This document shows positions 2,302 through 53,343 of a stretch of DNA of 62,769 bases, one piece after another. Position 1 is the stretch's first letter. The number at the start of each line of letters is the position of its first letter. Below the pieces are notes generated by a model. That model was not told the origin of the DNA. It searched no databases and saw only the letters and a program-made list of their open reading frames with translations. The position numbers and the translations under genes were made by a program. Source of the stretch: an uncultured Enterobacteriaceae bacterium (lineage in GTDB: Bacteria > Myxococcota_A > UBA9042). Location: contig CAYHHL010000009.1 of NCBI GenBank assembly GCA_964356325.1, forward strand, positions 1-62,769, read 5' to 3'.

Positions 2302-3561
2302 TCAGCCTCTCATGGACTTCGCAAGTTGCATCATCGGCAGCAGGATCGCCGCCACCAGGAAGCCGACCATCACGCCCATGCCGACGATCATGATCGGCTC
2401 CAGCAGCGAGGTCAGCGCATTCACCCGCGTATCCACCTGATTCTCATAGCTTTCACTCACGTTGCGCAGCATGTTCTCGAGTTCGCCCGAGCGCTCGCCG
2501 ATCGCCACCATGTGCACGACCATCGGCGGAAACTGCTGGCTGCGCTTCAACGGCCCGGCGATGCTGTCACCTTCCCGAATCGCCGCGCGGGCTTCGGCGA
2601 TCACCTTGGCGAGCACGCGATTGGCCACCACGTTCTCGACGATTTCCATCGCGGTCAGCAGCGGCACGCCCGAGGACAACAGCGTCGACAGGGTCCGAGA
2701 AAAGCGTGAGATCGCGATCTTGCGGATGAGGTCGCCCAGCACTGGCACCCGCAGCAGGAACGCGTCCCACGAGTCGGCGCCCTTGTCGGTGGCCAGCCAG
2801 CGCCGAAAGCCTACGGTTGCGCCGACCGCGAGCAGGATGCCCAACCACCAGAAGCTCGAGAACAGGCTCGAGATGAAGATCAAGGCCTTGGTGATCAACG
2901 GCATCTCGGTGCCAAGATCGGTGAACATCCCGGTAATCGTTGGCACCACGAAGATCATCATCGCCGAGACGATGAGGGTGGCGATGCACAACATGATGAC
3001 CGGATAGGTCATGGCGCCGATGATCTTGTTGCGCAGGCGCACTTGCGATTCGGTGAAGTCGGCCAACCGCAGCAGCACGACGTCCATGTTGCCCGAGCTC
3101 TCACCCGCGCGGACCATGTTGAAGTACGTGACGCCAAAGACTTTCGGGTGCGCGCCCAACGCCCGCCAGAACGGCGCGCCCTCGTTCACGTCGGTGCGCA
3201 CCTGGGCAAGGACGCGCTTGAGCTTGGGGTTTTCGATCTGCTCGACCGTGGCGCCCAGCGCATCGACCAACGGCACGCCGGCCTTGAGCAAGGTCGCCAT
3301 CTGCCTGGTCATTTCCGAGACGTCGTTGGGCGAGATGCGCGTGAGCAGTTCTTCGAGGTCGAAGTCGCGCGAGCCGGCCTTCTGCACCGCACCGGCGCGG
3401 ATCTTGGCCTTGCCGCCCTTGACCGAAGTCTCGTGGTACTCGGTGAGGAAAACCTTGTCGCGGCGCAACGCGGACTTGAGCGAACGCACGCTCTCGACAT
3501 CAAGGACTCCCTTGATGGTGCGGCCACTTGAATCCTTGCCTATGTATTCAAAGACCGGCAT
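2302..3561 (-). CDS. gspF: T2SS inner-membrane platform protein GspF
   Basis: Two T2SSF domains (RQMATLLKAGVPL, GESSGNMDVVL, MTYP, GERSGELENML, LLEP). Confidence 0.95.
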   Translation of the reverse strand: MPVFEYIGKDSSGRTIKGVLDVESVRSLKSALRRDKVFLTEYHETSVKGGKAKIRAGAVQKAGSRDFDLEELLTRISPNDVSEMTRQMATLLKAGVPLVDALGATVEQIENPKLKRVLAQVRTDVNEGAPFWRALGAHPKVFGVTYFNMVRAGESSGNMDVVLLRLADFTESQVRLRNKIIGAMTYPVIMLCIATLIVSAMMIFVVPTITGMFTDLGTEMPLITKALIFISSLFSSFWWLGILLAVGATVGFRRWLATDKGADSWDAFLLRVPVLGDLIRKIAISRFSRTLSTLLSSGVPLLTAMEIVENVVANRVLAKVIAEARAAIREGDSIAGPLKRSQQFPPMVVHMVAIGERSGELENMLRNVSESYENQVDTRVNALTSLLEPIMIVGMGVMVGFLVAAILLPMMQLAKSMRG

Positions 3562-3658
3562 GGAGGTTCCTGATGAGCACTGCTTCTAATTCTGGGCGTT
3601 CAATTCCAGTCGCTCGGCGACCCATTGTGATGCGTGATTGCGATGGCACTGCAGAGAC

Positions 3659-5467
3659 CTAATCTTCTTGGTCTTGATTGGCGATGCGCATCACCTCTTC
3701 CACGGTTGTAGAGCCGCGCAGCACCTTGTAGGCGCCGTCGTTCAGCAGCGTTTGCATGCCGCTCGCCACCGCCGCGCGCTTGATCGTCCCCGCGTCGTTC
3801 TTGGCCACGATCAGCCGCTTGATTTCCTCATTGGGAATGAGCAGTTCGTGTAGACCCATCCGACCTGCGTAGCCCGTCATGCCGCACTGCGGACAGCCCT
3901 TCGCCGAGTAGATGGTCGCCGTCGCCAGCCGCGGATCGGTGCGCGCGATGCCCAGTTGCTCCAGTTCCAGATCGGTCGGGATGTGCGGCTGCCGGCAGTC
4001 CCGGCACAGCACGCGACACAGCCGTTGCGCCAGGATGCCGATGATCGACGACGACAAAAGGAATGGTTCCACGCCCATGTCGACCATACGGGTATAGGTC
4101 GAGGCCGCGTCGTTGGTGTGCACCGTCGAAAGCACCAGGTGGCCGGTCAGCGCCGCTTGCACCGCGATTTCAGCGGTTTCCAGGTCGCGGATTTCACCCA
4201 CCAGCACCACGTCCGGATCCTGACGCAGCGTAGCGCGCAGACCGCGGGCAAAGGTGAAGTCGATCTTGGGGTTGACCTGCATCTGGCCGATGCCTTCCAA
4301 CTGGTATTCGACCGGATCCTCGATGGTCAAGATGTTGATATCCGGGTTGTTGATCGACATCAGCGCCGAGTACAGCGTGGTCGTCTTGCCTGAACCGGTC
4401 GGCCCCGTGCACAGCAAGATGCCGTTCGGACGGTGCACCAGCTGGTTGATCGCCTCCACGACGTCTTCGCGCATGCCCAGCGTCTTCAAATCCAGCGTAG
4501 TCGAGCCCTTGTCGAGCAGACGCATCACGATCCGCTCGCCGTGCGCAGTCGGGATCGTGCTCAAGCGCAAGTCGATGTCGCGGCCCGCCACCTTGATGCG
4601 GATGCGGCCGTCTTGGGGCAGGCGCTTCTCGGCGATGTTCAGGTTGCCCATGATCTTGACGCGGCTGGTGATGGAAGCCTGGAACTTCTTGGAGGTCCGC
4701 ACCACCTCGCGCAGCACGCCGTCCTTGCGGAAGCGCACCAGCACGTACTTCTCCATCGGCTCGATGTGCACGTCCGAGACGCGTTCCTTGGCCGCCTGGT
4801 TCAGCACCGAATTCACCAGCCGGATGATCGGCGCTTCGTCGTCCTCGTCGAGGATGTCCTTGGCCGCGTCCTCCAGTTCCATCGCGATGTCGGCGACGCC
4901 GGAGTCGGTTTTCTCCATGTCGTCGAGCACTTGATCGGCACGCGCGCGGCGGTCGAAAGCGAAGTTGATGGCGTGGTTCAGCACGTCGGGAGTCACCAAC
5001 ACCGGTTCGACCTGGACGCCGCCGAACAGCACGCGCAAGTCGTCCAGCGCCGAGGTCGCCATCGGATTGCTGGTCGCCACCGTCAACACGCCGTTCAGCT
5101 TGTGAATCGGCAGAAGTTCCGACTCCTTGGCCCAGCCCATCGCCAACGGCGCCACCAGCGACACGTCGATGTTCGCCTCGTCGATACTGTCCTGTACGGT
5201 CATGCCCAGCTGCGAACCGAGCGCCTGCATCAGCTGAAGTCGTGTGATCGCCAGGTGTTGGATGAGCAGCTCGCCGATCAGCCCGCCGCGCTCGCCCTGC
5301 ACCTTCAGCGCGCTCTCGACCGCCTCGACCGTGCACCAGCCGCGTCCGACCAGGATCTCACCCAGCGCGCGCGGATCGATCTGTGGCGCCACGGCCGGAC
5401 GCTGTGTCGGCGCCGGACTCTGCGGCGGCAGTGGAATCGACATCATCGTGGTGGCTTCGAGCGTCAC
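3659..5467 (-). CDS. gspE: T2SS ATPase GspE with N-terminal MshEN-like domain
   Basis: Walker A GPTGSGKT, TIEDPVEY, Walker B LVGEIRD, His box STVHTND, CRDC...CPQC zinc module; GTG start overlaps the gspD stop. Confidence 0.95.
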   Translation of the reverse strand: MTLEATTMMSIPLPPQSPAPTQRPAVAPQIDPRALGEILVGRGWCTVEAVESALKVQGERGGLIGELLIQHLAITRLQLMQALGSQLGMTVQDSIDEANIDVSLVAPLAMGWAKESELLPIHKLNGVLTVATSNPMATSALDDLRVLFGGVQVEPVLVTPDVLNHAINFAFDRRARADQVLDDMEKTDSGVADIAMELEDAAKDILDEDDEAPIIRLVNSVLNQAAKERVSDVHIEPMEKYVLVRFRKDGVLREVVRTSKKFQASITSRVKIMGNLNIAEKRLPQDGRIRIKVAGRDIDLRLSTIPTAHGERIVMRLLDKGSTTLDLKTLGMREDVVEAINQLVHRPNGILLCTGPTGSGKTTTLYSALMSINNPDINILTIEDPVEYQLEGIGQMQVNPKIDFTFARGLRATLRQDPDVVLVGEIRDLETAEIAVQAALTGHLVLSTVHTNDAASTYTRMVDMGVEPFLLSSSIIGILAQRLCRVLCRDCRQPHIPTDLELEQLGIARTDPRLATATIYSAKGCPQCGMTGYAGRMGLHELLIPNEEIKRLIVAKNDAGTIKRAAVASGMQTLLNDGAYKVLRGSTTVEEVMRIANQDQED

Positions 5468-8400
5468 GGCTTGGGCTCCGGCGTCTTCGGGGCGCTGTCT
5501 TCTTTCGCGGGCGCGCTGTCCGGGCCAGCCTTCTTGCCCTTGGCCTTGGGCGCAGTCTTGCCCTTGACTGGCACGGTCTTCGCCTTGGGCGCAGAGGTTG
5601 CCGCGGGCGCAGCGGATTCCCTGCCTGGCTTCTCGCCGTCCAAGCGATCGCTCGCGTCGTCGTCCTTGGCCTTGCCAGAAGCCTTGCCACCGCCTGGCTT
5701 TTCCGCTTCCGGCAGGTCGATCACTTCGGGCACGGTGCCGTCGTCGCTCTCGTCGTCCAGCCTGCCCTCGGCGTCCGGCTTGCCTTGGTTCTTCCTGTCC
5801 TGCGCATCCTTTTGTTTTTGCGCCTTGAACGGGTCGAAGTTCAGGTCGTGGCGCTCCGGCGGTCCGACCAGATCCACGTCCGCGTTGTCGAAGTACGCTT
5901 TTTCCTGAAGTTTGCGCTCCTCGGACGCCTTCTCGACCGTCTGGAACACCGCCTCGAGGAATCCGCGCTTCTTGCGGTAGTCGACCTTGCCCTCGTACTC
6001 CTTCTGCTTGGTCGCCAGCTCTTCGGCAAACTCGCGAATCTGCTGCATCTTGTTCTCGTGCATCCGCTCCAGATCGCTCGGGTCCTTGATGATGTGCGGC
6101 ACGATGATGAGCAGCAGGTTCTTCTTCTCGAGCAGCTTGGTGGTCTTGCGGAAGAACATGCCCAGCAGGGGCAGGTCGCCCAGGATCGGAATCTTGGAAA
6201 CGCCCGTGGTCTCGCGATCGGTAATCAAACCACCGATGACCACGGGCTGCTGATCGCGTACCACCACGGTGTTGGTGATCTTGCGCTTCGAAGTCGTCGG
6301 CCCCAGATCCGGGCTGATGCCTTCGACCTCGTCGAGTTGCTGGTCGATCTTGAGCTTGATGAAGTCCGACTCGTTGATCTGCGGCGTGATCTTGAGCGTC
6401 AGGTCGACCTCGAGGTGCTGCACCGTGCCGCCGAGCGCGCCGCCGAGCAGGCCGCCCAGCCCGCCGAGACCGCCCAACGACGACGCCGCGCCGCCCAAGC
6501 CGGAGAGGCCGCCGAGACCGCCCAAGGCACTGCCGCCCATGCTCTGGGAACGATAGGGGATCTTGCGTCCGACTGTGATCTCCGCGTCCTCGTTGTTGAG
6601 CGTGAGGATGTGCGGGGTGGACAACACGTTGACGTCGGAATTCTCCTGGATCGCCTGAATCAGGAAGCCGAACGCGGGGATGGACAGGGTGGCGCCGGCC
6701 GGGACAGCGCCTGTGTTGCCGGCGTCGACCTGCAGCAGGGGCCCCTGCAAGCCCGCCGCGAAGCCGCCCGCGTTGAGTTGCTGCAAGCTGACGCCGCCCA
6801 TGCCCAGACCGCCCAAGCCGATCAGGAAGGGCACATCCTTGTACTGGCCGATGTCGAACTTGACGCCCGTCGAGCCGGCGAGTTGGGTCTTGCGGTTCTT
6901 GGAGGTCGAGATCTCCATGATCACGGCTTCGACGTAGACTTGCTTGCGCCGCCGATCGAGCTCGGCGATGACCTTCTGCAAAGACAGGTAATCCTTGAGC
7001 GAAGACTCGATCACCAAGGCGTTGGTGGCCTTGTGCGCGGTGATCTTCACGTCGCCTTCGAACAGCGTGGCCGTCCCGCCGCCCTTGGCCCCACCGGCCT
7101 TGGCGCCGCCGGTCTTGCCCCTCGCCGCGCCGGCCTTGGCCCCGCCGCCGCCGCCCGCGAGCGAGGACAAGGTGCTGGCCACGTCCTCGGCGTCGGCGTT
7201 CTCCAAATGGTGGATGTGGATGGCGCCCTCGCCCGGAATCGGCACGTCGAGCTTGCGGATCAGCGCGTCGATCTTGAGGTAGTTGCTCCTCGTCGCGATG
7301 AGGATGAGCTGGTTGGAGCGGTCGTCAGCAATCGCCTTGGAAAGCGTGACCTTGTTGCCCGCCGGACCGCCGGCGGCTCCGGGAGGCGAACCGGGCGTGG
7401 TCGCTCCACCCTTGCCGCCCGCGCCTTCGAACACCGCGGTGATCTTCTCGACCAGTTCCGAGGCGTCCATGTGCTGCACCGGGCGGATCCAGATCTTCTC
7501 GGCGCCCAGCGGCAAGTCGACGTCGTTGAGCAACTTCATGATGCTGTGGATGTTGGTGCCGGTGTCGGTGACGATGAGCGAGTTGTTCGGCGGATACACG
7601 AAGATATCGCCGGCCTTGCTCTTGAACTTGGTGACCAGGGGCTCGACCTCCTTGGCGTCGAGGTTCTTCAACCGGATGATGCGCGTGACCATGTTGTCAT
7701 CGTTGGGCACCGCGCTCGTGGGCCCGACGACCGTGGCGCCCGAGGTGCGCGCGTCCGCCGTGTCGACGATGTGGTAGAATGCGCCCTTCTTGGTGACGGA
7801 CATGCCGTTGACCATCAGGCTCGACAGGAAGGCGCGGTAGGCCTCGTACACGCTGACCGGCTGCGGCGAAATGATGGTGATCTTGCCGCCGCGCTTCTGG
7901 GTCGCGAGGATGAAGTTGCGCGTGGTCCAACACGAAACGAGCTTCATCACCGCTTCGATCGGCGCGTCCTGGAAGTCCAGTGTCACCTTGGCGTTGGCCG
8001 GCAGCTTCTTGCACTTGATATCGCTGATGTTGTTCTTGATCGCGACGACGTCATCGCCCATCTTCTTGAGGTCGTCGTCACCGATCGCGCCCTTGGCCGC
8101 GCCTGCCTGATCGTCCTTGCCAGCGCGACCGCCACCGGCAGGCGTGGGCACCACCGGATCGCTCGGGCCCCCGTCCACGCCCAGCTTCTTGGACGTTTGC
8201 GCGGGATCGTAGTCCGGATCGAGGGACTGCTTGCCGCCGCCGCGCTTGAACACGCCGCTGCCGGTCGCCTTCAAGTCCTTGGTTTTGCCCTTCTTGTTCA
8301 GCGTGCCGGCGCCGGTCTTGACGGGAATGGTCTTGTCGCCCGGCGGGGCAGCGGCTTGCTGGGCATGCGCCATGCCTGGCAGCAGAAGCGCGCAGATCAG

Positions 8401-8499
8401 CACCAAAACGCCAGTCTTGTCGCAGGCACGCCGCAGGGACGGCGGCGGCTGGCTTGGCTTGCCCGGCTTGTCAGCCAGCGTGGGTCGGAACGGACGCAA
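5464..8499 (-). CDS. gspD: T2SS secretin GspD
   Basis: N0 (VTLDFQDAPI), repeated N domains, KQVYVEAVIMEI, NVLSTPHILTLNNEDAEITVG, LKITPQIN, KIPILGDLPLLGMFFR. Likely start is TTG 8499 after GGAGAG (ORF track starts at 8553). Confidence 0.95.
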   Translation of the reverse strand: MRPFRPTLADKPGKPSQPPPSLRRACDKTGVLVLICALLLPGMAHAQQAAAPPGDKTIPVKTGAGTLNKKGKTKDLKATGSGVFKRGGGKQSLDPDYDPAQTSKKLGVDGGPSDPVVPTPAGGGRAGKDDQAGAAKGAIGDDDLKKMGDDVVAIKNNISDIKCKKLPANAKVTLDFQDAPIEAVMKLVSCWTTRNFILATQKRGGKITIISPQPVSVYEAYRAFLSSLMVNGMSVTKKGAFYHIVDTADARTSGATVVGPTSAVPNDDNMVTRIIRLKNLDAKEVEPLVTKFKSKAGDIFVYPPNNSLIVTDTGTNIHSIMKLLNDVDLPLGAEKIWIRPVQHMDASELVEKITAVFEGAGGKGGATTPGSPPGAAGGPAGNKVTLSKAIADDRSNQLILIATRSNYLKIDALIRKLDVPIPGEGAIHIHHLENADAEDVASTLSSLAGGGGGAKAGAARGKTGGAKAGGAKGGGTATLFEGDVKITAHKATNALVIESSLKDYLSLQKVIAELDRRRKQVYVEAVIMEISTSKNRKTQLAGSTGVKFDIGQYKDVPFLIGLGGLGMGGVSLQQLNAGGFAAGLQGPLLQVDAGNTGAVPAGATLSIPAFGFLIQAIQENSDVNVLSTPHILTLNNEDAEITVGRKIPYRSQSMGGSALGGLGGLSGLGGAASSLGGLGGLGGLLGGALGGTVQHLEVDLTLKITPQINESDFIKLKIDQQLDEVEGISPDLGPTTSKRKITNTVVVRDQQPVVIGGLITDRETTGVSKIPILGDLPLLGMFFRKTTKLLEKKNLLLIIVPHIIKDPSDLERMHENKMQQIREFAEELATKQKEYEGKVDYRKKRGFLEAVFQTVEKASEERKLQEKAYFDNADVDLVGPPERHDLNFDPFKAQKQKDAQDRKNQGKPDAEGRLDDESDDGTVPEVIDLPEAEKPGGGKASGKAKDDDASDRLDGEKPGRESAAPAATSAPKAKTVPVKGKTAPKAKGKKAGPDSAPAKEDSAPKTPEPKP

Positions 8500-8572
8500 A
8501 GGGCACTCTCCGATGCGGACGTTGGTCCGCTGGTGGTGGCACGAAAAGCCCATCCCACCCAGATGGTTCGAT

Positions 8573-9598
8573 CTACTGGACCGTATACCGCAGCGTTTTC
8601 GCGACGCCGCCGCGCTCGATCAGCACGGTCAGGCGCGCCTTGTTCTTCAAGGCTTCGTACAGGGACAAGGCTTTGTTCGGACTGTCCAGGGGCTCACCGT
8701 TCACCGCGAGCAGGATGTCCCCGTTCGTGAAGCCGATTTCGCCAAACAGGCTGTCGCCCTGCATGCCGATCATGCGCACACCGGCGTACTTGCCGTTCTT
8801 GTAGTTCGGCACGATGCGGACCTGCTGGCCCAGCGCCGCCAGATCCTTCAGCTTGTCATTGATATGCTTGCGATCCAGCTGGTAGCTCGTGTCGGACAGC
8901 TTCTTCACGCCCTCGACCTGCGGCTCCGTGCTCTTCCTGGTATCGACAGCGGAACTGCGCTTGGGCTCAGGCGATCGGCCGGGCATCGGCTGGCCAGGCT
9001 GCCCGTCCATGCCTGGCTGCACCGGCACCCCCATGGCCGCGGAATCCTTGCCGAACAGCGGCGCGATCGTCAGCTTGTCGGCTTCCCTCAACACCACGTA
9101 ATTGCGCCGGATAGCCAGGATGGTCGCCTTGCCGTCGAGGATTTCCGTGCCGACGCCGACGACCTTCTGGTCCTTCTTGTCCATCTCCATGCTGGCCTGG
9201 GAAAACTCGGCGGGCATCACGACCATCGTGCCCAGCAGCTTGACCGGCAGCGTCGTCGGTTCGTAGGTCGGCTCCGGGGGCGCCAGTTCGGCTCCGCTGT
9301 CGACGACGTTTTCATCTGTATTCTCGAGAGGCTCTTCGACCTTGGGCGTTTCGATCAGGAAGATGCTGCGACCGGCGATGACTGCGCCTGCCTGCTCGTT
9401 CAAGCGACCGTTCAACAGCCGCAGGCCAATCGCGGTGTCCCCTGCCGTCGCGGCGATATTGGGCTTTTCGTCACCGCGACCCATCACGGCCAGGCGCATG
9501 CCGATGAAGGCATTGATCGACCCGGCCGAAAGCCACGCGATGACCGCGAGGCCGACCAGGGTGATGACCCAGAAATGACGCTTGAGCAGAACTTCCAT
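8573..9598 (-). CDS. gspC: T2SS protein GspC with C-terminal PDZ domain
   Basis: N-terminal TM helix, HR domain (KLLGTMV, IRRNYVVL), RIVPNYKNGKYAGVR and PDZ (GFTNGDILLAVNG); first gene of the operon. Confidence 0.9.
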   Translation of the reverse strand: MEVLLKRHFWVITLVGLAVIAWLSAGSINAFIGMRLAVMGRGDEKPNIAATAGDTAIGLRLLNGRLNEQAGAVIAGRSIFLIETPKVEEPLENTDENVVDSGAELAPPEPTYEPTTLPVKLLGTMVVMPAEFSQASMEMDKKDQKVVGVGTEILDGKATILAIRRNYVVLREADKLTIAPLFGKDSAAMGVPVQPGMDGQPGQPMPGRSPEPKRSSAVDTRKSTEPQVEGVKKLSDTSYQLDRKHINDKLKDLAALGQQVRIVPNYKNGKYAGVRMIGMQGDSLFGEIGFTNGDILLAVNGEPLDSPNKALSLYEALKNKARLTVLIERGGVAKTLRYTVQ

Positions 9599-9678
9599 GC
9601 TCGCCTGTTCTCGCACGTCAGCTAGGTTGCCGACTCGCCCTTGGTGGCCCTGGCTACACCAGCACTAGTCCGATTAGA

Positions 9679-9958: not shown

Positions 9959-11035
9959 ATGACAAGTCGATGCTGTATCTGGGTTTGCTGCCTCTGGTTT
10001 GGCGTCTTGGGCTTCGGTTGCTCCGACGGCGAGACAGCCGCCAAGGCCAAGGCCGACGCCGCGATCGCCGACACGCTCGACACCGAGGACTCGGTGACGC
10101 CCCCTGACGCCGGCAGCGAGATCGTCGACAGCGCGACACCCGGGACCGATGCCAGCGCACCCGTCGACGAAGACGCCGGTCTGGACGCGACCTTGCGCAC
10201 CACGCCTGACGGTTGCGTCGCGAACTGCGCGCAAAGCGACGGCACGCCCAAGGTCTGCGGCGGCAACGGCTGCGGCTCGGTGTGCGGCTTCTGCAAGACC
10301 GGGTACTTGTGCAAGCCCGACGGCAGCGAGTGCATCGAACTGTGCAAGCCGAAATGCGACGGCAAGAAGTGCGGCGACAACGGCTGCGGCGGCAACTGCG
10401 GCACGTGCCAGGATAAGTTCCACTGCGGCATCGACTTCCTGTGCCACGAGGACGCCTGCGTCGGCTCGTGCGCGAGCAAGCAGTGCGGCGACGACGGCTG
10501 CGGCATCAGTTGCGGCGACTGCCCGCAAGGCGACCTGTGCGAGAGCACGGGACAGTGCAAACCTGGACCGTGCAAGGGTATTCCCAACGAGGGCAGTTGC
10601 GCGGGCGACATCCTCAAGACCTGTGTGGGCAGCGGCGCCTCGGCCACCAAGCTCAACACCGATTGCGGCGCGACCGCGGGCAAGACCTGCGGTTGGGATC
10701 CCCTCAAGAATGTGAATGCTTGCATCGAGAAGCCGCCGTGTGTGCCGAACTGCAAGACCCTCGACGGCAAGACCACCAAGGTTTGCGGCGACAACGGCTG
10801 CGGCAAACCGTGCGGCACCTGCACAAGCGGCTGGACCTGCAAGATCACCACTTGCGAACCGACGGTAGGCGCGGAATGCGGCTCGAGCTGGCCACCCGCG
10901 GGCAAGTGCTCGGGCAATACGCTGCAATACTGTTCGACCGGCTCGCCGCCCAAGATCGTCGAGTTGGACTGCAGCGAAGTGCCCGGTTGGAAATGCCAGT
11001 ACACCGGCAGCAAGTACGACTGCGTCTCGCCCTGA
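9959..11035 (+). CDS. Cys-rich repeat lipoprotein
   Basis: Lipobox-like GFGC, acidic D/A/T linker, four CxxxC..CGxxGCGxxCGxC repeats and two GxCxG(D/N)xLxxC modules; AAGAGG before the ATG. Confidence 0.8.
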   Translation: MTSRCCIWVCCLWFGVLGFGCSDGETAAKAKADAAIADTLDTEDSVTPPDAGSEIVDSATPGTDASAPVDEDAGLDATLRTTPDGCVANCAQSDGTPKVCGGNGCGSVCGFCKTGYLCKPDGSECIELCKPKCDGKKCGDNGCGGNCGTCQDKFHCGIDFLCHEDACVGSCASKQCGDDGCGISCGDCPQGDLCESTGQCKPGPCKGIPNEGSCAGDILKTCVGSGASATKLNTDCGATAGKTCGWDPLKNVNACIEKPPCVPNCKTLDGKTTKVCGDNGCGKPCGTCTSGWTCKITTCEPTVGAECGSSWPPAGKCSGNTLQYCSTGSPPKIVELDCSEVPGWKCQYTGSKYDCVSP

Positions 11036-11040
11036 CCTGG

Positions 11041-11877
11041 TTACATGCCTCGGGCTGCTTGCATGTTCACCAGCAAGTCCTTGTAGTTGACGCCTTGCCT
11101 GGCCCCTGCCGGACCGTAGAACACCTCGTCCAGCGTCAAACCGTGCGCGGGCGCCGTCTGCCCGGCGCGGCTGCGATCGCCGCCCAGCAGGATCTGCGGC
11201 ACTGTGAGTGCGTTGAGCCGGCCGCGACCTATGTCGACCAACGTGCCGGTGATGATGCGCACCATGTTGAGCAGGAAGGCGTTTCCATCCACGGTGACCG
11301 TCACGACACCCGGTTCCGGCTCGGCCACCTCCACGCTGCGCAGGTGACGGATCGTCGAGGCCGCGGTACAGCCGACCGCTCGAAACGCCGCGAAATCATG
11401 GATGCCTGCGAAATACACCGCGGCTGCTTGCATGGCCTCGACGTCCAAGGGCCCGCGCACTTGCCAGGCATTTCGCCGGCGCAGGGGCTGGCGCGCTTCC
11501 CCGACCGTCAACCCGTATACGTAGCGCTTGCCCACCGCGTCGGCGCGCACGTCGAACTCCGCGGGCACGTCATCCGCCGCCTGGATCGCCATGTCTTCGG
11601 GTAGATGTGCGTTCAGCCCGAGCATCAGGCCGCGCGCCGGCACCGTCTTGTCGGTTCGCACCAGCACCGGCATGCGGCGGGCGTGCACTCCGGCGTCGGT
11701 GCGGCTGGAACTGCGCGCAATCACAGGCTCGCCGAGCATCCGCAGCCAGGCCGCCTCGAGCGTGCCCGCCACCGTGCGCGTGCCTTCAGCCTGGCGTTGG
11801 AAGCCCGAGAAGTCGGTGCCGTCGAACTGCACCCACAGCAGCACGTGACGCGAGCGCTCGCGGTCCGCGGGCCTCAC
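11041..11877 (-). CDS. truA: tRNA pseudouridine(38-40) synthase TruA
   Basis: QFDGTDFSGFQRQ, SRTDAGVHA (catalytic Asp), FLLNMVRIITG, TAPAHGL. True start is GTG 11877, overlapping the upstream stop (GTGA); the 549-aa ORF-track call is over-extended. Confidence 0.95.
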   Translation of the reverse strand: MRPADRERSRHVLLWVQFDGTDFSGFQRQAEGTRTVAGTLEAAWLRMLGEPVIARSSSRTDAGVHARRMPVLVRTDKTVPARGLMLGLNAHLPEDMAIQAADDVPAEFDVRADAVGKRYVYGLTVGEARQPLRRRNAWQVRGPLDVEAMQAAAVYFAGIHDFAAFRAVGCTAASTIRHLRSVEVAEPEPGVVTVTVDGNAFLLNMVRIITGTLVDIGRGRLNALTVPQILLGGDRSRAGQTAPAHGLTLDEVFYGPAGARQGVNYKDLLVNMQAARGM

Positions 11878-13649
11878 AGATCGAACGCAATCCCGAAGGT
11901 CAGCATGTCGTCCGACAGGTCGATCGACTTGGGGTTGCCGAAATCCGTGAGCGAGAGCTTCTTGTATTCCGCGAACAAGTAGCTGTGGTTGACGCCCATT
12001 TCGATGTCGAAGCTGCGGGCGGACTGCGGCTCGAACACGTCCAACAGCAAGCGCATGCCCAACGTCCCGTAGAAACCGCCAGTGCCGCCGCGGCCGACGT
12101 ATTCCTTGCCGCCGATCGTAGTGCGCGACAAGTTGCCCAGGCCGTTCTCCATCCACCACAGCGCGTAGACGATACCGCCGCGAACATAGGGAATCAGCGG
12201 GAAGTCGTAGCGTTCGGCCAGCACGTCGAAGCGGTACACGGCGTCGAACGAGATCGGCACGATCGACAGCGTGGTGGTGTCGCCGGTCGTGGCACCGCCC
12301 TTCGAGAGGCTGTTGCCCTCCTTGGTCCAGCGCGCGGCGCCCATGCCCATCGAGAAATCCCCGAAACCGTTCCAGATTCGCCAATCTATCGTTGCGCCGA
12401 CTTCCCAGGCGCTGTCCTTCATGATCTTGGCGTAGGGCGTGAAGCCATTGGTGCCGACGAATTCGCGATCGATTTGCGGGGTGTAGCTGCCAAAGCGGAT
12501 GTCCAGGCTCGAGGTCAGGGGCGAGACAGCCTCGCTGCGGGCGGGCAGGGCGCAAAGGCCGAGCGCAACCAGGACAATCGGCAAGGCGCGCACCGACTTG
12601 CGCCGCCGGACCACTAGCCACGCCAGCCCCGCGAGCATCAGCAGGGCGATGAGCCCCGAGGGCGAGCGACCGACCGGAGCCGCACTGCACGCGGCGTAGT
12701 CGCCTTCTTCGGCCCCGCCCTTGTCCTTGTAGTACTCCCAGAGGTCTCGGACCTCGATGGGGGTGGCGGTCTTGATTGCCGATGGGGCGCTCTCGTTGTC
12801 GTGCGCATCGACGGCGACGACGGTGACGTTGTAGGGGATGTCATTGGTCAAGTTCGGGATCTTGTAGGAGGTGCCCGGCAACTTGTCCGACCTCGTTGAT
12901 TCAGGCAGGGCATTGAGATCCAGCGGCCCGGCCGACCAATACACCCGCGCGAAGTTGTCTTTCGCGTCGACGTAGCTCCAAGTGACGTTGAGGTTGTTGC
13001 CGCCTGGAGTCAGGCCGGTGATGGTCGGCGTGCCCGGGCCGGCCAGGTCGAGCTTGATGTCGAGCGTGATGCCGCTGGTCGTGGCGGCGGCGCCGGCCGT
13101 TGCGACCTGACCGCCGATGAGAAAGGCGATTTTGGCAGTGGGTTCGGTGCCGGCCGTGCACAGCGTGTCGCCGAGCAGGTCGCGCAGGTCGACTTCCACC
13201 GTCTCGCCCAGCGCGTTGGCCTTGAACTTCTCGTCGATGAGCAAGACCTTGCACTTGCCCGACGGGTCGGCGGTCGAGGACATCTCGGTGAGGCTGCAAC
13301 TCGCGCCCGGCGCGGCGACCTTGATGCCGTACGTGTTCGACGCTACGCCCGCCAGCGGCCGATCGAGCCAACTCCACTTGATCCGCACCTTGGGCAGCGC
13401 ATTCTTGCGGATCAGGTTGCAGTCCGCGATGTTGATGACGTGCTCGACGTTGATGTCGACGGCGCTGGCGGGAGACTTGAACAAGCGCTCATTGGGCGTG
13501 TAGGTCAGGCCCGAGATTGCGGCGATGCTGTCGATCTGAATGGTGATGGCCCAGGCCGACGCGCTAGTCAGAAGGAGCATCGTCACCGATACTGCCAGAG
13601 TCAGCACTTTCTTTGTCTGGCCAAGGGCCTGCCGCGCACTCCACACCAT
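11874..13649 (-). CDS. Secreted FN3-like protein with internal MYXO-CTERM-like segment fused in frame to an outer-membrane beta-barrel (MXAN_2561/MXAN_2562-like)
   Basis: Signal peptide (SAWA|I); FN3-like domain (PGTPTITGL...LNVTWS...YNVTVVAVD); CSAAPVGRSPSG + TM helix + RRRK; a second signal-like stretch (ARSEA|V); alternating-hydrophobic barrel ending GIAFDL. GGAGG before ATG 13649. Family names from memory of myxobacterial families. Confidence 0.8.
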   Translation of the reverse strand: MVWSARQALGQTKKVLTLAVSVTMLLLTSASAWAITIQIDSIAAISGLTYTPNERLFKSPASAVDINVEHVINIADCNLIRKNALPKVRIKWSWLDRPLAGVASNTYGIKVAAPGASCSLTEMSSTADPSGKCKVLLIDEKFKANALGETVEVDLRDLLGDTLCTAGTEPTAKIAFLIGGQVATAGAAATTSGITLDIKLDLAGPGTPTITGLTPGGNNLNVTWSYVDAKDNFARVYWSAGPLDLNALPESTRSDKLPGTSYKIPNLTNDIPYNVTVVAVDAHDNESAPSAIKTATPIEVRDLWEYYKDKGGAEEGDYAACSAAPVGRSPSGLIALLMLAGLAWLVVRRRKSVRALPIVLVALGLCALPARSEAVSPLTSSLDIRFGSYTPQIDREFVGTNGFTPYAKIMKDSAWEVGATIDWRIWNGFGDFSMGMGAARWTKEGNSLSKGGATTGDTTTLSIVPISFDAVYRFDVLAERYDFPLIPYVRGGIVYALWWMENGLGNLSRTTIGGKEYVGRGGTGGFYGTLGMRLLLDVFEPQSARSFDIEMGVNHSYLFAEYKKLSLTDFGNPKSIDLSDDMLTFGIAFDL

Positions 13650-13732
13650 CGCCTGCCTCCGCGCCCATTCTCGCGACTGGCCGGACCGACTGGACCGTGC
13701 CACCGTTGCGAACTCTCACGCTGCTTCCATGA

Positions 13733-13748
13733 TGCACGCCCCGTGCCA
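13733..13748 (-). promoter_or_regulatory. sigma-54 promoter of the fusion gene-truA unit
   Basis: Minus strand reads TGGCACG-GGGC-GTGCA: exact -24 box, GG-N10-GC spacing, one mismatch in -12; about 85 nt upstream of ATG 13649. Confidence 0.7.
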
Positions 13749-13850
13749 AAGCCGCTCGCCCGGAACATCTGACGAAACAGGCGGATGCGCCCCGATCGCA
13801 GCTACAGCGCCTGCCGTCCCGTCACGGTCTCGAGTCTACCGCGCCCCCCG

Positions 13851-51087: not shown

Positions 51088-51158
51088 TTCGAGTGCAAGC
51101 ACTCGAATTGGCTCAGGATGACATCGCCTGCTTCGAGTGCTTAGCACTCGAGGCAGGC
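51088..51158. repeat. Two related palindromes overlapping the end of the matrixin-like gene
   Basis: TTCGAGTGC-AA-GCACTCGAA (51088-51107) and GCCTGCTTCGAGTGC-TTA-GCACTCGAGGCAGGC (51126-51158). Confidence 0.75.
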
Positions 51159-53189
51159 TCGGCGGCGCAGGGCCAGCAGGCTCACGACGGCCAGCAAGGC
51201 CAGCAGGGGCAGCACGCCGCGCGAGGTTCGGCTGGCTTGGCAGGTCGAGTCGTCCGCCAGTTGTACGCCCTTGAACTTGCTCGCGAGGACCACGTCCGGC
51301 AGCGCGAGATCGTTGCGCGCCGAGGGGTTGGCTAGCTTCTTTGCAGCAGGACTCACCGCGAAGCGCAGCGCGGCGTCGGGCGCGCACACGCCGTGCTCGC
51401 TGGCCAAGCCGCCCGTTTCGAAAGGCGCGCACGTCAGCCCCGAAGCGCACGGTTTGCCTTTGGGGTCGCACACCGTGCGGCAGTTCGCGGGCTCGCCGGT
51501 CGCCGCGGCGCAAAATAGGTCCGAGCGGCATGGCTGGCTGGCGCTGCACGAGGCTCCCGGCGCGGCGCCGCCCTGGTCCGCCCGGCACACTCCGCCTGAC
51601 TTGACCCACACGCAGCTGTGCGCCTTGGTGCAGTCGCTGCCGTCACCGTACGGGTCGCAGGTGGGCGAACAGGCGCCGATACCAAGCGCGGGGCCGACGT
51701 CGCAGGCCAGGTTGTTGCCGCACGAGCCGGACAACAGGCACGGACCGCCGACGATGGCCGGGCCTGAGGGGATGCACCACTGGAGGCCGGACACGGTGCT
51801 GCAGCCGGTGCCGGCGGGGCATTCCGCTGCGACGACGCAGGGCTGGCTGCACACGCGCGGGTAGCGGCCGCCAGGCGTCGGCACGCATTCGCCGGTCGCG
51901 CAGTCGCCGTTGCCTTCGCAGGGGAAGCCGATCGGCAGCGGCCCGCCCTTGGCCGAACAAAACTGGTCCGTGCGGCAGGACGAGCTCTTGGGGCAGCTGT
52001 GGTTGCCGACGCAATCCAGGCTGCACGAGCCGCCTTGGACCGAAGAACCGACGCAAGTCGCCGGGTTCAGAGCGCCGGACGAACACTCCGAAGCGATGAG
52101 GCAGGGCTCGCCGGGTTCACGCGTTCCAGAGTAGTGGCACAGCTGGCCGGTGCTCGAGGCCACGCAAAAGCCACCGTGGCATCCGGAGCTGCAGGTCTTG
52201 GTGCACCAGCCGAACTTGGACTCGGTGTTGCAGTAGTAGCCGCCGGGGTCGCCGGCGCTCGGCGCGGGGCAGGCGTTGTCGCTGAAGCACAGGCCGCCAG
52301 GGGCCGCCTGCCCGGACTCGGGGTGGCAATGGCCGTCATTGGGCAGGCAGGCCTTGCCGTCGCCGGTCGCGCCGCAACTGGTGGCCAACGGGCAGTCGCC
52401 GTGATCCTGGCACGAGAGCAGGCAGTGGCGGGAACCATCTGACCAGGCGAAGCATTGCCCTTGGGCACAGTCGGCGTCGGTGCTGCACGCGTCGCACTGG
52501 CTGCCGGGCGCTGGACTCTTGGCGGTGGGCCACAGGAAATGGACGCCGCGGCGATCGTCCTCGGCTAGCACGCGCTGGCCGGCGTCGATGCGGTAGAAGT
52601 ACATGGCCGAGCCACTGTCCCTGCTGTGGCCGAGACCGATCGCATGGCCGAGCTGGTGCGTCAGGGCGCCTTGCAGATCGACGAGTTGGCCGGTCTGGAA
52701 CGGCGCGTTGGGATTCAGGGACCACACGATGGGCGGCGCCGCGTTCAGCGCGATCTCGATCCGGCTGACCTTGCCCGAGGCGTCGTGCAGCCGATCGGCG
52801 CGGCCCGTAACGTCGCCGCTGCTGCCGACGTACTTGGAATCGAAGGTGATATAGATATCGTAAAGTGGCGGCTTGGTGACTTGACCGCCGAAATTCAGCA
52901 CGACCCGCGAGTCCGGCACCGCGTTCCAGGTCGCGATCGCCGCCAGGATCGCCGTCTCGACTTGCGCCGAGGTGAGCTTGCCGACGGCCTGCGGACGCCA
53001 ATACACCGACAGCGGCACCTGCGCCGGCCGGATGATGTGGCCCTGTTCGGTGCGATCGACGTCGAACGCAAGCGCCTTACGCGGCAAGAGCAAAGCGCTC
53101 GCCAGGAGCAGCAGCGCCAGCGTCGGTCGCGCGAGCCACTGGTATCTGGGGAACAGCCGGAGAGGATGCGGTGTAGATAGCAAGGCCAT
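51141..53189 (-). CDS. Matrixin (M10)-like secreted protein with HQxxH motif, Cys-rich repeats and MYXO-CTERM-like tail
   Basis: Signal peptide (ALA|F); AAIATWNAVP; HQLGHAIGLGH plus Met-turn SAMY; about 400 aa of Cys repeats; tail TCQASRTSRGVLPLLALLAVVSLLALRRR. Confidence 0.85.
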   Translation of the reverse strand: MALLSTPHPLRLFPRYQWLARPTLALLLLASALLLPRKALAFDVDRTEQGHIIRPAQVPLSVYWRPQAVGKLTSAQVETAILAAIATWNAVPDSRVVLNFGGQVTKPPLYDIYITFDSKYVGSSGDVTGRADRLHDASGKVSRIEIALNAAPPIVWSLNPNAPFQTGQLVDLQGALTHQLGHAIGLGHSRDSGSAMYFYRIDAGQRVLAEDDRRGVHFLWPTAKSPAPGSQCDACSTDADCAQGQCFAWSDGSRHCLLSCQDHGDCPLATSCGATGDGKACLPNDGHCHPESGQAAPGGLCFSDNACPAPSAGDPGGYYCNTESKFGWCTKTCSSGCHGGFCVASSTGQLCHYSGTREPGEPCLIASECSSGALNPATCVGSSVQGGSCSLDCVGNHSCPKSSSCRTDQFCSAKGGPLPIGFPCEGNGDCATGECVPTPGGRYPRVCSQPCVVAAECPAGTGCSTVSGLQWCIPSGPAIVGGPCLLSGSCGNNLACDVGPALGIGACSPTCDPYGDGSDCTKAHSCVWVKSGGVCRADQGGAAPGASCSASQPCRSDLFCAAATGEPANCRTVCDPKGKPCASGLTCAPFETGGLASEHGVCAPDAALRFAVSPAAKKLANPSARNDLALPDVVLASKFKGVQLADDSTCQASRTSRGVLPLLALLAVVSLLALRRRACLEC

Positions 53190-53343
53190 TTCCGTCCATC
53201 TCGCGCGCAGAACCGGCGCGCGTTTTCGCTGGCAAACCATCGCCCTGACTGTAGGCGTCCGCGGCTGTGGAGTCCACCGCTAGCACAGTGGCTCGCTCGG
53301 CCAAAGGCAGGGGTGCAGAACAATAGGCGAAACATTGAATTGC

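Follow-up and report, generated by a model that had tools for sequence, protein, structure and literature searches.

Does a gene that joins a surface protein to an outer-membrane beta-barrel in one reading frame, with a sorting signal and a second signal peptide between the two halves, give rise to one protein or to two? The question is raised by a minus-strand gene in a stretch of 62,769 nucleotides (contig CAYHHL010000009.1 of assembly GCA_964356325.1, titled uncultured Enterobacteriaceae bacterium and placed by GTDB in Myxococcota_A; UBA9042), which derives from a freshwater metagenome and is referred to here, in its full length, as the window. A preliminary description of this DNA had read one open reading frame (ORF) as signal peptide, surface protein, internal MYXO-CTERM sorting signal, second signal peptide and barrel, and had proposed that two membrane proteases cut the precursor. 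The observation of an in-frame fusion is confirmed: one stop-free ORF carries both halves, the DNA is identical to the letters quoted, and the positions given for the Cys codon (12689), the end of RRRKS (12594) and VRALPIVLVALGLCALPARSEA (12593-12528, followed by VSP) are all exact. From sequence comparison, we take the gene to be a natural and ancient in-frame fusion of positional orthologues of sgmI (MXAN_2561) and MXAN_2562, and we consider it probable that two proteases process the single precursor into a surface protein and a barrel.

The frame is free of stop codons from 13703 to the TGA at 11876-11874 (ORF 11874..13703). ATG 13649 is the likely start rather than GTG 13703 because GGAGG lies 6 nucleotides (nt) upstream of it, and translation from this ATG gives a product of 591 amino acids (aa), that is, a 591-codon ORF ending at TGA 11874. 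The tag in the middle of the chain reads C321-SAAPVGRSPSG-LIALLMLAGLAWLVV-RRRKS (12689-12594), with the Cys321 codon beginning at 12689. The parts of the gene, where TM denotes transmembrane and AF2 denotes AlphaFold2, are as follows.

13656..13660, minus strand: putative Shine-Dalgarno sequence GGAGG, 6 nt 5' of ATG 13649, read from the sequence.
13548..13649, minus strand: predicted N-terminal Sec signal peptide, aa 1-34 (...KKVLTLAVSVTMLLLTSASAWA|ITIQ, with SASAWA before the cut), from the translation.
12690..13547, minus strand: surface-protein moiety, aa 35-320, SgmI/MXAN_2561-like, from NF045522, Foldseek and AF2.
12594..12689, minus strand: internal MYXO-CTERM, aa 321-352, with Cys321, TM helix 1 (LIALLMLAGLAWLVV) and basic RRRK, from TIGR03901 and TIGR03382.
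12528..12593, minus strand: internal signal peptide VRALPIVLVALGLCALPARSEA, aa 353-374, predicted cut after Ala374, from the alignment of 53 proteins.
11877..12527, minus strand: predicted mature outer-membrane beta-barrel, aa 375-591, beginning V-S-P, MXAN_2562 family, from NF040596, AF2 and Foldseek.

Hidden Markov model (HMM) searches were run on both halves, and the three families that the preliminary description had named (MXAN_2561, MXAN_2562 and MYXO-CTERM) were all recovered by NCBIfam. The N-terminal moiety matches NF045522 (MXAN_2561_fam) with 93.8-96 bits (E 1e-26 to 3e-27; aa 117/134-351, profile 73-304 of 304). It has the layout of the SgmI family: an N-terminal signal peptide stands in front, fibronectin type III (FN3)/Ig-like domains follow, and the moiety closes with a tag (aa 319-352). 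The cleavage site of the N-terminal signal peptide was placed by inspection (AWA). Two FN3/Ig-like beta-sandwich domains make up the moiety, with four Cys (C77, C118, C133, C164) that are invariant in the 53-protein alignment; the Pfam fn3 match is weak, and a Foldseek search with the AF2 model (predicted local distance difference test score, pLDDT, about 90) leads to tandem FN3 domains at E 1e-7. Taking the profile match together with gene order, we regard this moiety as a homologue and positional orthologue of MXAN_2561/SgmI, and not as an equivalog by the NCBI threshold.

The boundary of the two halves is matched by both MYXO-CTERM models, TIGR03901 with 22.8-23.7 bits against a cut-off of 20 (aa 319-350) and TIGR03382 with 16.2-17.1 bits against a cut-off of 15.85 (aa 321-350). 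Cys321 is invariant (53/53) within a GG(Y/F)xxC(S/N)A context, R348/R349 are kept in at least 90% of the aligned proteins, and TM helix 1 consists of 15-28 uncharged residues with a median of 19. The Cys, the TM helix and the Arg-rich cluster that characterize MYXO-CTERM are thus all present in the fusion. The extreme C-terminal position is not, as 239 residues follow the tag. We also considered the 'midcut-by-XrtH' model NF033207 and rejected it, its match being non-significant (E 0.71). Elsewhere in the window, a 712-aa ORF (51141-53279, minus strand) that was found by regular expression has a Cys/TM/RRR tail (…CQASRTSRGVLPLLALLAVVSLLALRRRACLEC); it weakly matches the 'myxosortase-dependent metalloprotease MXAN_2677/2678' model (32 bits, cut-off 250), and the MYXO-CTERM HMM is non-significant for it.

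The C-terminal half matches NF040596 (MXAN_2562_fam) with 190.6 bits when the whole protein is searched and 193.8 bits when this half is searched by itself (cut-off 100; aa 381-590, profile 3-207 of 208). By its fold, its conserved AxA site and its place after an SgmI-like tagged protein it is a member of the MXAN_2562 family, with the signal peptide lying internally. The AF2 model of the whole protein, obtained with a 53-sequence alignment, has a pLDDT of 84.9. After a signal-peptide helix that spans aa 6-28 come two domains of beta-sandwich fold, then one helix at 330-349 and another at 355-366, and finally the barrel (380-590). Confidence drops under 50 in three stretches only, aa 1-7, 322-329 and 368-376, of which the last two are linkers that coincide with the predicted cut regions. 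The model of the barrel by itself reaches a pLDDT of 91.4.

In the 53 aligned proteins, the two helices at the boundary form a hairpin whose letters drift freely while its processing features stay fixed. In the loop between the helices the medians are 5 R/K and 0 D/E. The hydrophobic segment that follows (h-region) comprises 15-26 uncharged residues with a median of 20. At position -3 of the internal signal peptide there is Ala in 44/53, Ser in 5 and Val in 2 (A/S/V/G in 52/53), and at position -1 there is Ala in 50/53 and Ser in 2 (A/S in 52/53). Pro occurs at -6 in 30/53, and Ser-Pro at +2/+3 in 53/53; stand-alone barrels start their mature chain at the same x-S-P, behind an ordinary N-terminal signal peptide. 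The pattern therefore has the basic n-region, the h-region and the small -3/-1 residues of a signal peptidase I substrate, at an internal location (aa 353-374) in place of the N-terminal one of a Sec signal peptide. The processing signals are all under constraint despite the drift of the hairpin sequence. The preliminary description had supposed that the Arg cluster of the tag doubles as the n-region, and this agrees with many fused homologues in which the cluster is the sole basic segment available, for example RRRK-SGLLLVILV and RLRRR-GVIAAVL. A lipoprotein signal (LspA) at the second signal peptide was rejected: the Cys of LGLC has Leu at -1 and is unconserved in homologues.

The architecture is not particular to the window. 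A search of 5.8 billion proteins in clusters of 90% identity gave 52 other clusters with the same architecture, mostly from Myxococcota metagenome-assembled genomes, with 578-632 aa, 39-75% identity and at least 92% of the query length; such sharing is far beyond chance. Public annotations label the fused proteins by one half only. The preliminary description had called for a survey of fused and split homologues, and this was carried out by an exhaustive HMMER search with the barrel half, which gave 1,214 representatives (50% identity clusters) at E ≤0.001, of which the best 150 were classed by a crude pattern. Among these best 150, the barrel is C-terminal behind the hairpin of TM helix, basic cluster and signal peptide in 74 (fused) and stands alone with its own N-terminal signal peptide in 52; 11 are fragments, and 13 are long proteins left unclassified by the crude pattern. 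The Cys stands just before TM helix 1 in 55 of the 74 fused proteins. Several of the long forms lacking this Cys have an SgmI-like N-terminal moiety followed, before the barrel, by a CFI-box-CTERM tag (NF041770, 74-94 bits, cut-off 40), as in the fused loci L034, L065, L074 and L036 and the proteins P0081, P0097, P0128, P0075, P0062 and P0161. The module of tagged FN3 protein plus barrel thus exists with two sorting signals, each both fused and split. A third architecture is seen in four members of the barrel family (P0178, P0180, P0192, P0186), which have long charged low-complexity N-terminal extensions and no TM hairpin.

In addition, one genome per GTDB species was scanned with the barrel alignment, and the best 80 of 378 relatives were taken as loci. 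These comprise 25 in-frame MYXO-CTERM fusions, 16 split MYXO-CTERM pairs (from Corallococcus, Archangium, Anaeromyxobacter, Bradymonadales and others; six of the 16 are closely related Corallococcus, which inflates the split counts, and lineages differ in codon usage) and about 34 loci of the CFI type (4 fused, about 30 split). That the two families are separate adjacent genes in Myxococcus, as the preliminary description stated, holds for cultured Myxococcaceae (Corallococcus, Archangium) and for other relatives. Upstream, the gene asd is present at 23/25 fused and 14/16 split MYXO-CTERM loci, and truA lies downstream in 25/25 fused, 6/16 split MYXO-CTERM and 25/39 of the remaining loci. Because the asd/truA neighbourhood is common to fused and split loci, the window gene and the sgmI/MXAN_2562 pair are positional orthologues.

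A maximum-likelihood tree of 81 barrel sequences places the window gene in a clade that consists of 22 fused genes, is supported at SH-aLRT 99 and has deep branches inside it; this pattern indicates one old fusion retained since. Elsewhere in the tree fused genes stand beside split sisters (L045 with L060, both Bradymonadales, and L047 with L053), and further fused genes lie outside the main clade (L071, L048, the CFI-type L034/L065, L074 and L036). The fused or split state changes at least eight times on the barrel tree. Such repeated interconversion argues that the two forms are functionally interchangeable and give the same products. Three metagenome-assembled genomes titled 'uncultured Enterobacteriaceae bacterium' (L003, L009, L021) have a Myxococcota-type fused locus with asd/truA synteny. 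As they fall within the clade of fused Myxococcota genes, the taxonomy in their titles seems to be mistaken.

How, then, could one chain give two proteins? The N-terminal signal peptide would engage Sec and the FN3 moiety would be exported until the MYXO-CTERM helix halts transfer, leaving RRRK in the cytoplasm. The next hydrophobic segment would then re-insert with its N-terminus in and its C-terminus out, using the same Arg cluster as its n-region, so that the barrel moiety is exported as well. Signal peptidase I would cut after SEA374 and release a 217-aa barrel starting with VSP, which the beta-barrel assembly machinery (BAM) would insert into the outer membrane. Cys321 would be lipidated and the myxosortase MrtX would cut after it, giving a surface protein of about 287 aa that the neighbouring type II secretion system (T2SS) would carry to the cell surface, and the 53-aa two-helix hairpin would be discarded. 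The outcome would be the same two products as from translationally coupled gene pairs, in a fixed 1:1 ratio. Both cleavages, their order, the final locations and the 1:1 stoichiometry are what we infer from the arrangement of signals. The cut by signal peptidase I, at least, seems obligatory, because the hairpin would keep an uncleaved barrel at the inner membrane and off the outer membrane. As far as sequence data reach, the interpretation given in the preliminary description is supported.

Several points weigh against processing by two proteases, and, apart from the NF045522 score, they also favour the best of the alternatives, namely that only signal peptidase I cuts and that Cys, TM helix and Arg cluster are a vestigial tag serving as a stop-transfer anchor, with the FN3 moiety held in the inner membrane and facing the periplasm. 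Both MYXO-CTERM models exceed their cut-offs narrowly (the TIGR03901 score of 22.8 bits against 20 is marginal), and the N-terminal moiety, unlike SgmI equivalogs, stays under the NF045522 equivalog cut-off of 150 bits. A crude motif scan found no CPBP-like protease ORF among the ORFs of the window. Cleavage in all fused members is a prediction from sequence, and the action of MrtX on a tag whose tail is followed by a second TM helix is likewise predicted. However, while the helices drift, Cys321 and its GG(Y/F)xxC(S/N)A surroundings vary not at all or hardly in the 53 proteins (53/53), which would be unexpected for a mere anchor. The split orthologues at the same locus end in a true C-terminal MYXO-CTERM, the fused and split forms interconvert repeatedly, and T2SS genes adjoin the locus. 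We therefore consider a vestigial tag unlikely and continue with the two-protease processing.

A second alternative concerns translation. The barrel might be made separately from GTG 12593 as a nested gene, with the read-through fusion as a minor or non-functional by-product. This GTG is in frame and has Arg after it, and M-RALPIVLVALGLCALPARSEA|VSP would be a workable signal peptide, a further point against processing of one precursor; moreover, in split relatives the barrel is initiated by coupling at exactly this position. In 15/16 split loci the ATG or GTG of the barrel lies one base ahead of the upstream TGA (ATGA or GTGA overlap), and in 15/16 there is a Shine-Dalgarno core at -18 to -3 of the barrel start, formed mostly by the Arg/Lys codons of the tag (cggAGGAAGGtgtcATGA, cgcAGGAGGaagtcATGA). 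The Arg codons at the junction number 18 AGR to 30 CGN in split loci, and in the loop after the tag helix of the 26 fused loci including the window they number 5 AGR to 109 CGN. The window itself has CGG CGG CGC, and the 18 nt that precede GTG 12593 contain no Shine-Dalgarno core. A start codon accompanied by a Shine-Dalgarno core occurs at the junction of only 2/26 fused loci, and 11/26 have no ATG, GTG or TTG from the Arg cluster to the fourth codon of the h-region.

At the split loci the same stretch of DNA thus encodes the topogenic signal and the ribosome-binding site together. Read in this way, the Arg codons also act as the ribosome-binding site of the barrel in split genes, and the Arg residues also act as the n-region of its signal peptide in fused genes. 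Tag codons AGG AGG AAG that are the Shine-Dalgarno sequence of an ATGA-overlapping barrel gene are found in L052, L056, L057, L068, L069, L073, L075, L076, L077 and others (junction at about 2975-3000 of the locus). The preliminary description had named independent translation of the barrel from GTG 12593 as a test of its proposal; the 26 fused loci have no conserved internal start or Shine-Dalgarno sequence. Since 11/26 are without a start codon and only 2/26 have a Shine-Dalgarno core, internal initiation is not the conserved route to the barrel, although in this one gene some of it may occur. Two further points count against the nested gene: in several fused loci the only basic residues before the h-region are those of the Arg cluster, upstream of any possible start, and in a clade whose sequences diverge by as much as about 60% the frame has remained open.

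RNA is compatible with either route. RNA contigs from 3 of 4 metatranscriptomes match portions of both halves perfectly (12660-12877, 13188-13479, 13395-13545, 13624-13800, 11892-12050 and 12256-12405). In these four metatranscriptomes no RNA contig crosses the junction, which also counts against a single precursor, and the contigs therefore do not distinguish between a single transcript or start site and two of them. Taken together, we judge the nested gene to be quite improbable, somewhat more so than the vestigial tag, and retain a single precursor cut by two proteases.

The third alternative is a type V, autotransporter-like protein, in which the C-terminal barrel would export the passenger across the outer membrane without the T2SS. 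In favour of this are the order of passenger and then barrel in one chain and weak Foldseek matches, at E 6e-3 to 8e-3, between the barrel and the translocators of AIDA-I and NalP. The best Foldseek matches, however, are the poreless 8-stranded barrels of Ail, the OmpA TM domain, OmpX and NspA (E 1e-6 to 4e-5, TM-target 0.58-0.71), as against the 12 strands of a translocator; the 10-stranded OmpT/Pla match more weakly. The modelled shape looks like an anchor or platform rather than a secretion pore, and on this account the autotransporter reading fails. In addition, the TM hairpin and the cleavable signal peptide divide the two halves, which would preclude a covalent link once the barrel reaches the outer membrane, and the two parts are separate genes in relatives. 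A type V identity is accordingly rejected on fold and topology, and we regard it as very improbable.

Could the fusion itself be an error? Independent Logan contigs from two different samples were compared with the window. The contigs X1 (11800-13332) and X2 (12396-13750) span the junction with 0 differences, and the stop or frameshift that the preliminary description had asked to be excluded there is absent from both samples. A sequencing or assembly frameshift that joined two overlapping genes can practically be dismissed: split relatives are offset by one base (3n+1) at the ATGA overlap, so that a single indel error could imitate a fusion, but contigs of two samples give one and the same junction sequence, the fusion recurs in 52 other clusters and in 21 species-representative loci inside one supported clade, and the junction codons differ systematically between fused and split loci. 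The fusion is almost certainly real and conserved.

The surroundings of the gene in the window are listed below.

11874..11877, minus strand: GTGA overlap of the fusion stop TGA (11876-11874) with GTG 11877-11875 in the truA frame, from the sequence.
8573-9616, minus strand: gspC, NF041515 GspC_delta, 220 bits, cut-off 150.
5464-8553, minus strand: gspD, Pfam Secretin.
3659-5467, minus strand: gspE, Pfam T2SSE.
2302-3561, minus strand: gspF, Pfam T2SSF.
13732..13748, minus strand: sigma-54-like -24/-12 element TGGCAC-N5-GTGCA (TGGCACggggcGTGCA), by reading, about 85 nt upstream of ATG 13649.

The gene order is asd, fusion gene, truA, and the frame from 11877 encodes a PseudoU_synth_1 protein (truA). 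Because stop and start overlap in GTGA, translational coupling of truA to the envelope gene is suggested. The gspC-D-E-F cluster (2302..9616) lies about 2.3 kb from the fusion gene on the same strand. Between the two is a Cys-rich, probably secreted ORF (9959-11035, plus strand) that is unclassified, with no Pfam or NCBIfam match. The sigma-54-like element is a possible promoter, and a scan of the gene region for sigma-70 promoters and terminators found nothing. Since the RNA contig 13624-13800 runs across the sigma-54-like element, transcript read-through from asd or carry-over of DNA is possible.

The closest known system is a pair of genes in Myxococcus xanthus: sgmI/MXAN_2561, for an FN3 surface protein with a MYXO-CTERM tag, and MXAN_2562, for a small outer-membrane beta-barrel. 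The latter follows downstream of the former and is apparently co-transcribed with it, insertions in the one or the other resemble each other in their developmental fitness profiles, and a role of SgmI in type IV pilus-dependent (S) motility or adhesion has been reported for M. xanthus only (bioRxiv 10.64898/2026.08.28.747804); in the literature, MXAN_2561/2562 were found only in this preprint. The fusion resembles the pair in the families and their order, in the tag at the boundary, in the signal peptide of the barrel and in the asd...truA setting of the split loci examined. It differs in being a single ORF with CGN Arg codons and no start signal, whereas split pairs have the ATGA/GTGA overlap and a Shine-Dalgarno sequence in the Arg codons.

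The treatment of MXAN_5598 and MYXO-CTERM in PMC11980579 provides the nearest precedent. There, MrtX is described as cleaving MYXO-CTERM at the Cys motif, as shown for TraA, a protein that it reportedly processed in E. coli, and surface display in M. xanthus as dependent on the T2SS (PMC11980579). MXAN_5598 is an adhesin with an internal MYXO-CTERM and an outer-membrane barrel with an OmpA domain, a probable gene fusion according to the authors, who propose that its N-terminal part undergoes processing and surface anchoring and liken it to the overlapping traA/traB genes (PMC11980579, mBio 2025). In its section on this protein, the idea of an internal MYXO-CTERM with an outer-membrane barrel has already been noted, and our reading is therefore not wholly new. 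The window gene is like MXAN_5598, as portrayed there, in having the tag inside the chain and an in-frame outer-membrane barrel after it, and unlike it in belonging to other families (MXAN_5598 being a large adhesin whose barrel has an OmpA domain). Such cases are described as rare in that section, while the fused arrangement here is the norm for a whole clade; an internal signal peptide, a shared Arg cluster and signal peptidase I are absent from its discussion of MXAN_5598. A search of the literature gave nothing on the SgmI-barrel fusion, its internal signal peptide, the shared Arg cluster or the contrast between Arg codons as Shine-Dalgarno sequence and as n-region, and none was found on CFI-box-CTERM.

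The same part of the literature offers a more distant parallel in Haloferax volcanii HVO_0405, which has an ArtA-dependent tripartite signal away from the C-terminus (cited in PMC11980579). Both HVO_0405 and NF033207 'midcut-by-XrtH' are like the window gene in that a usually C-terminal tripartite tag stands mid-chain and is cut, or predicted to be cut, there. They differ in their enzymes, which are archaeosortase or exosortase, and in their motifs. No outer-membrane barrel or second Sec signal is known to follow these tags. In bunyaviruses, signal peptidase of the host cleaves the Gn/Gc glycoprotein precursor at signal peptides within the chain. As proposed for the window gene, the TM anchor of the first product and an internal signal peptide for the second form a hairpin, cleavage takes place on the membrane's far side, and the partners are equimolar. 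Viral polyproteins belong to the eukaryotic endoplasmic reticulum and have no homology to the fusion, which adds a predicted tag-specific intramembrane protease.

On balance, we are inclined to regard the tag helix, the Arg loop and the internal signal peptide as a general and repeatedly evolved device of Myxococcota that makes an envelope polyprotein of a coupled gene pair. The product would be a hairpin-threaded Sec substrate with one basic cluster for both helices. A CPBP myxosortase and signal peptidase I, inner-membrane proteases unrelated to each other, would free from it a surface protein with a lipid anchor and, at a strict 1:1 ratio, the outer-membrane barrel that is its dock. Because CFI-box-CTERM takes the place of MYXO-CTERM at the same locus, in fused as well as split form, the comparison suggests that several 'C-terminal' tags work naturally mid-chain.

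Should the predicted cuts of the precursor take place, the gene would be a clear case of polyprotein logic at a bacterial inner membrane, based on an internal signal peptide and an internal sorting tag. Tags of the myxosortase type would need no C-terminal position, and two helices would be orientable by one basic cluster. It would also argue that SgmI-like proteins and MXAN_2562 barrels are an obligate 1:1 pair, and it would provide a hypothesis for the surface docking of a lipoprotein delivered by the T2SS. The contrast in Arg codons between split and fused loci is a natural experiment on the fusion and separation of overlapping genes.

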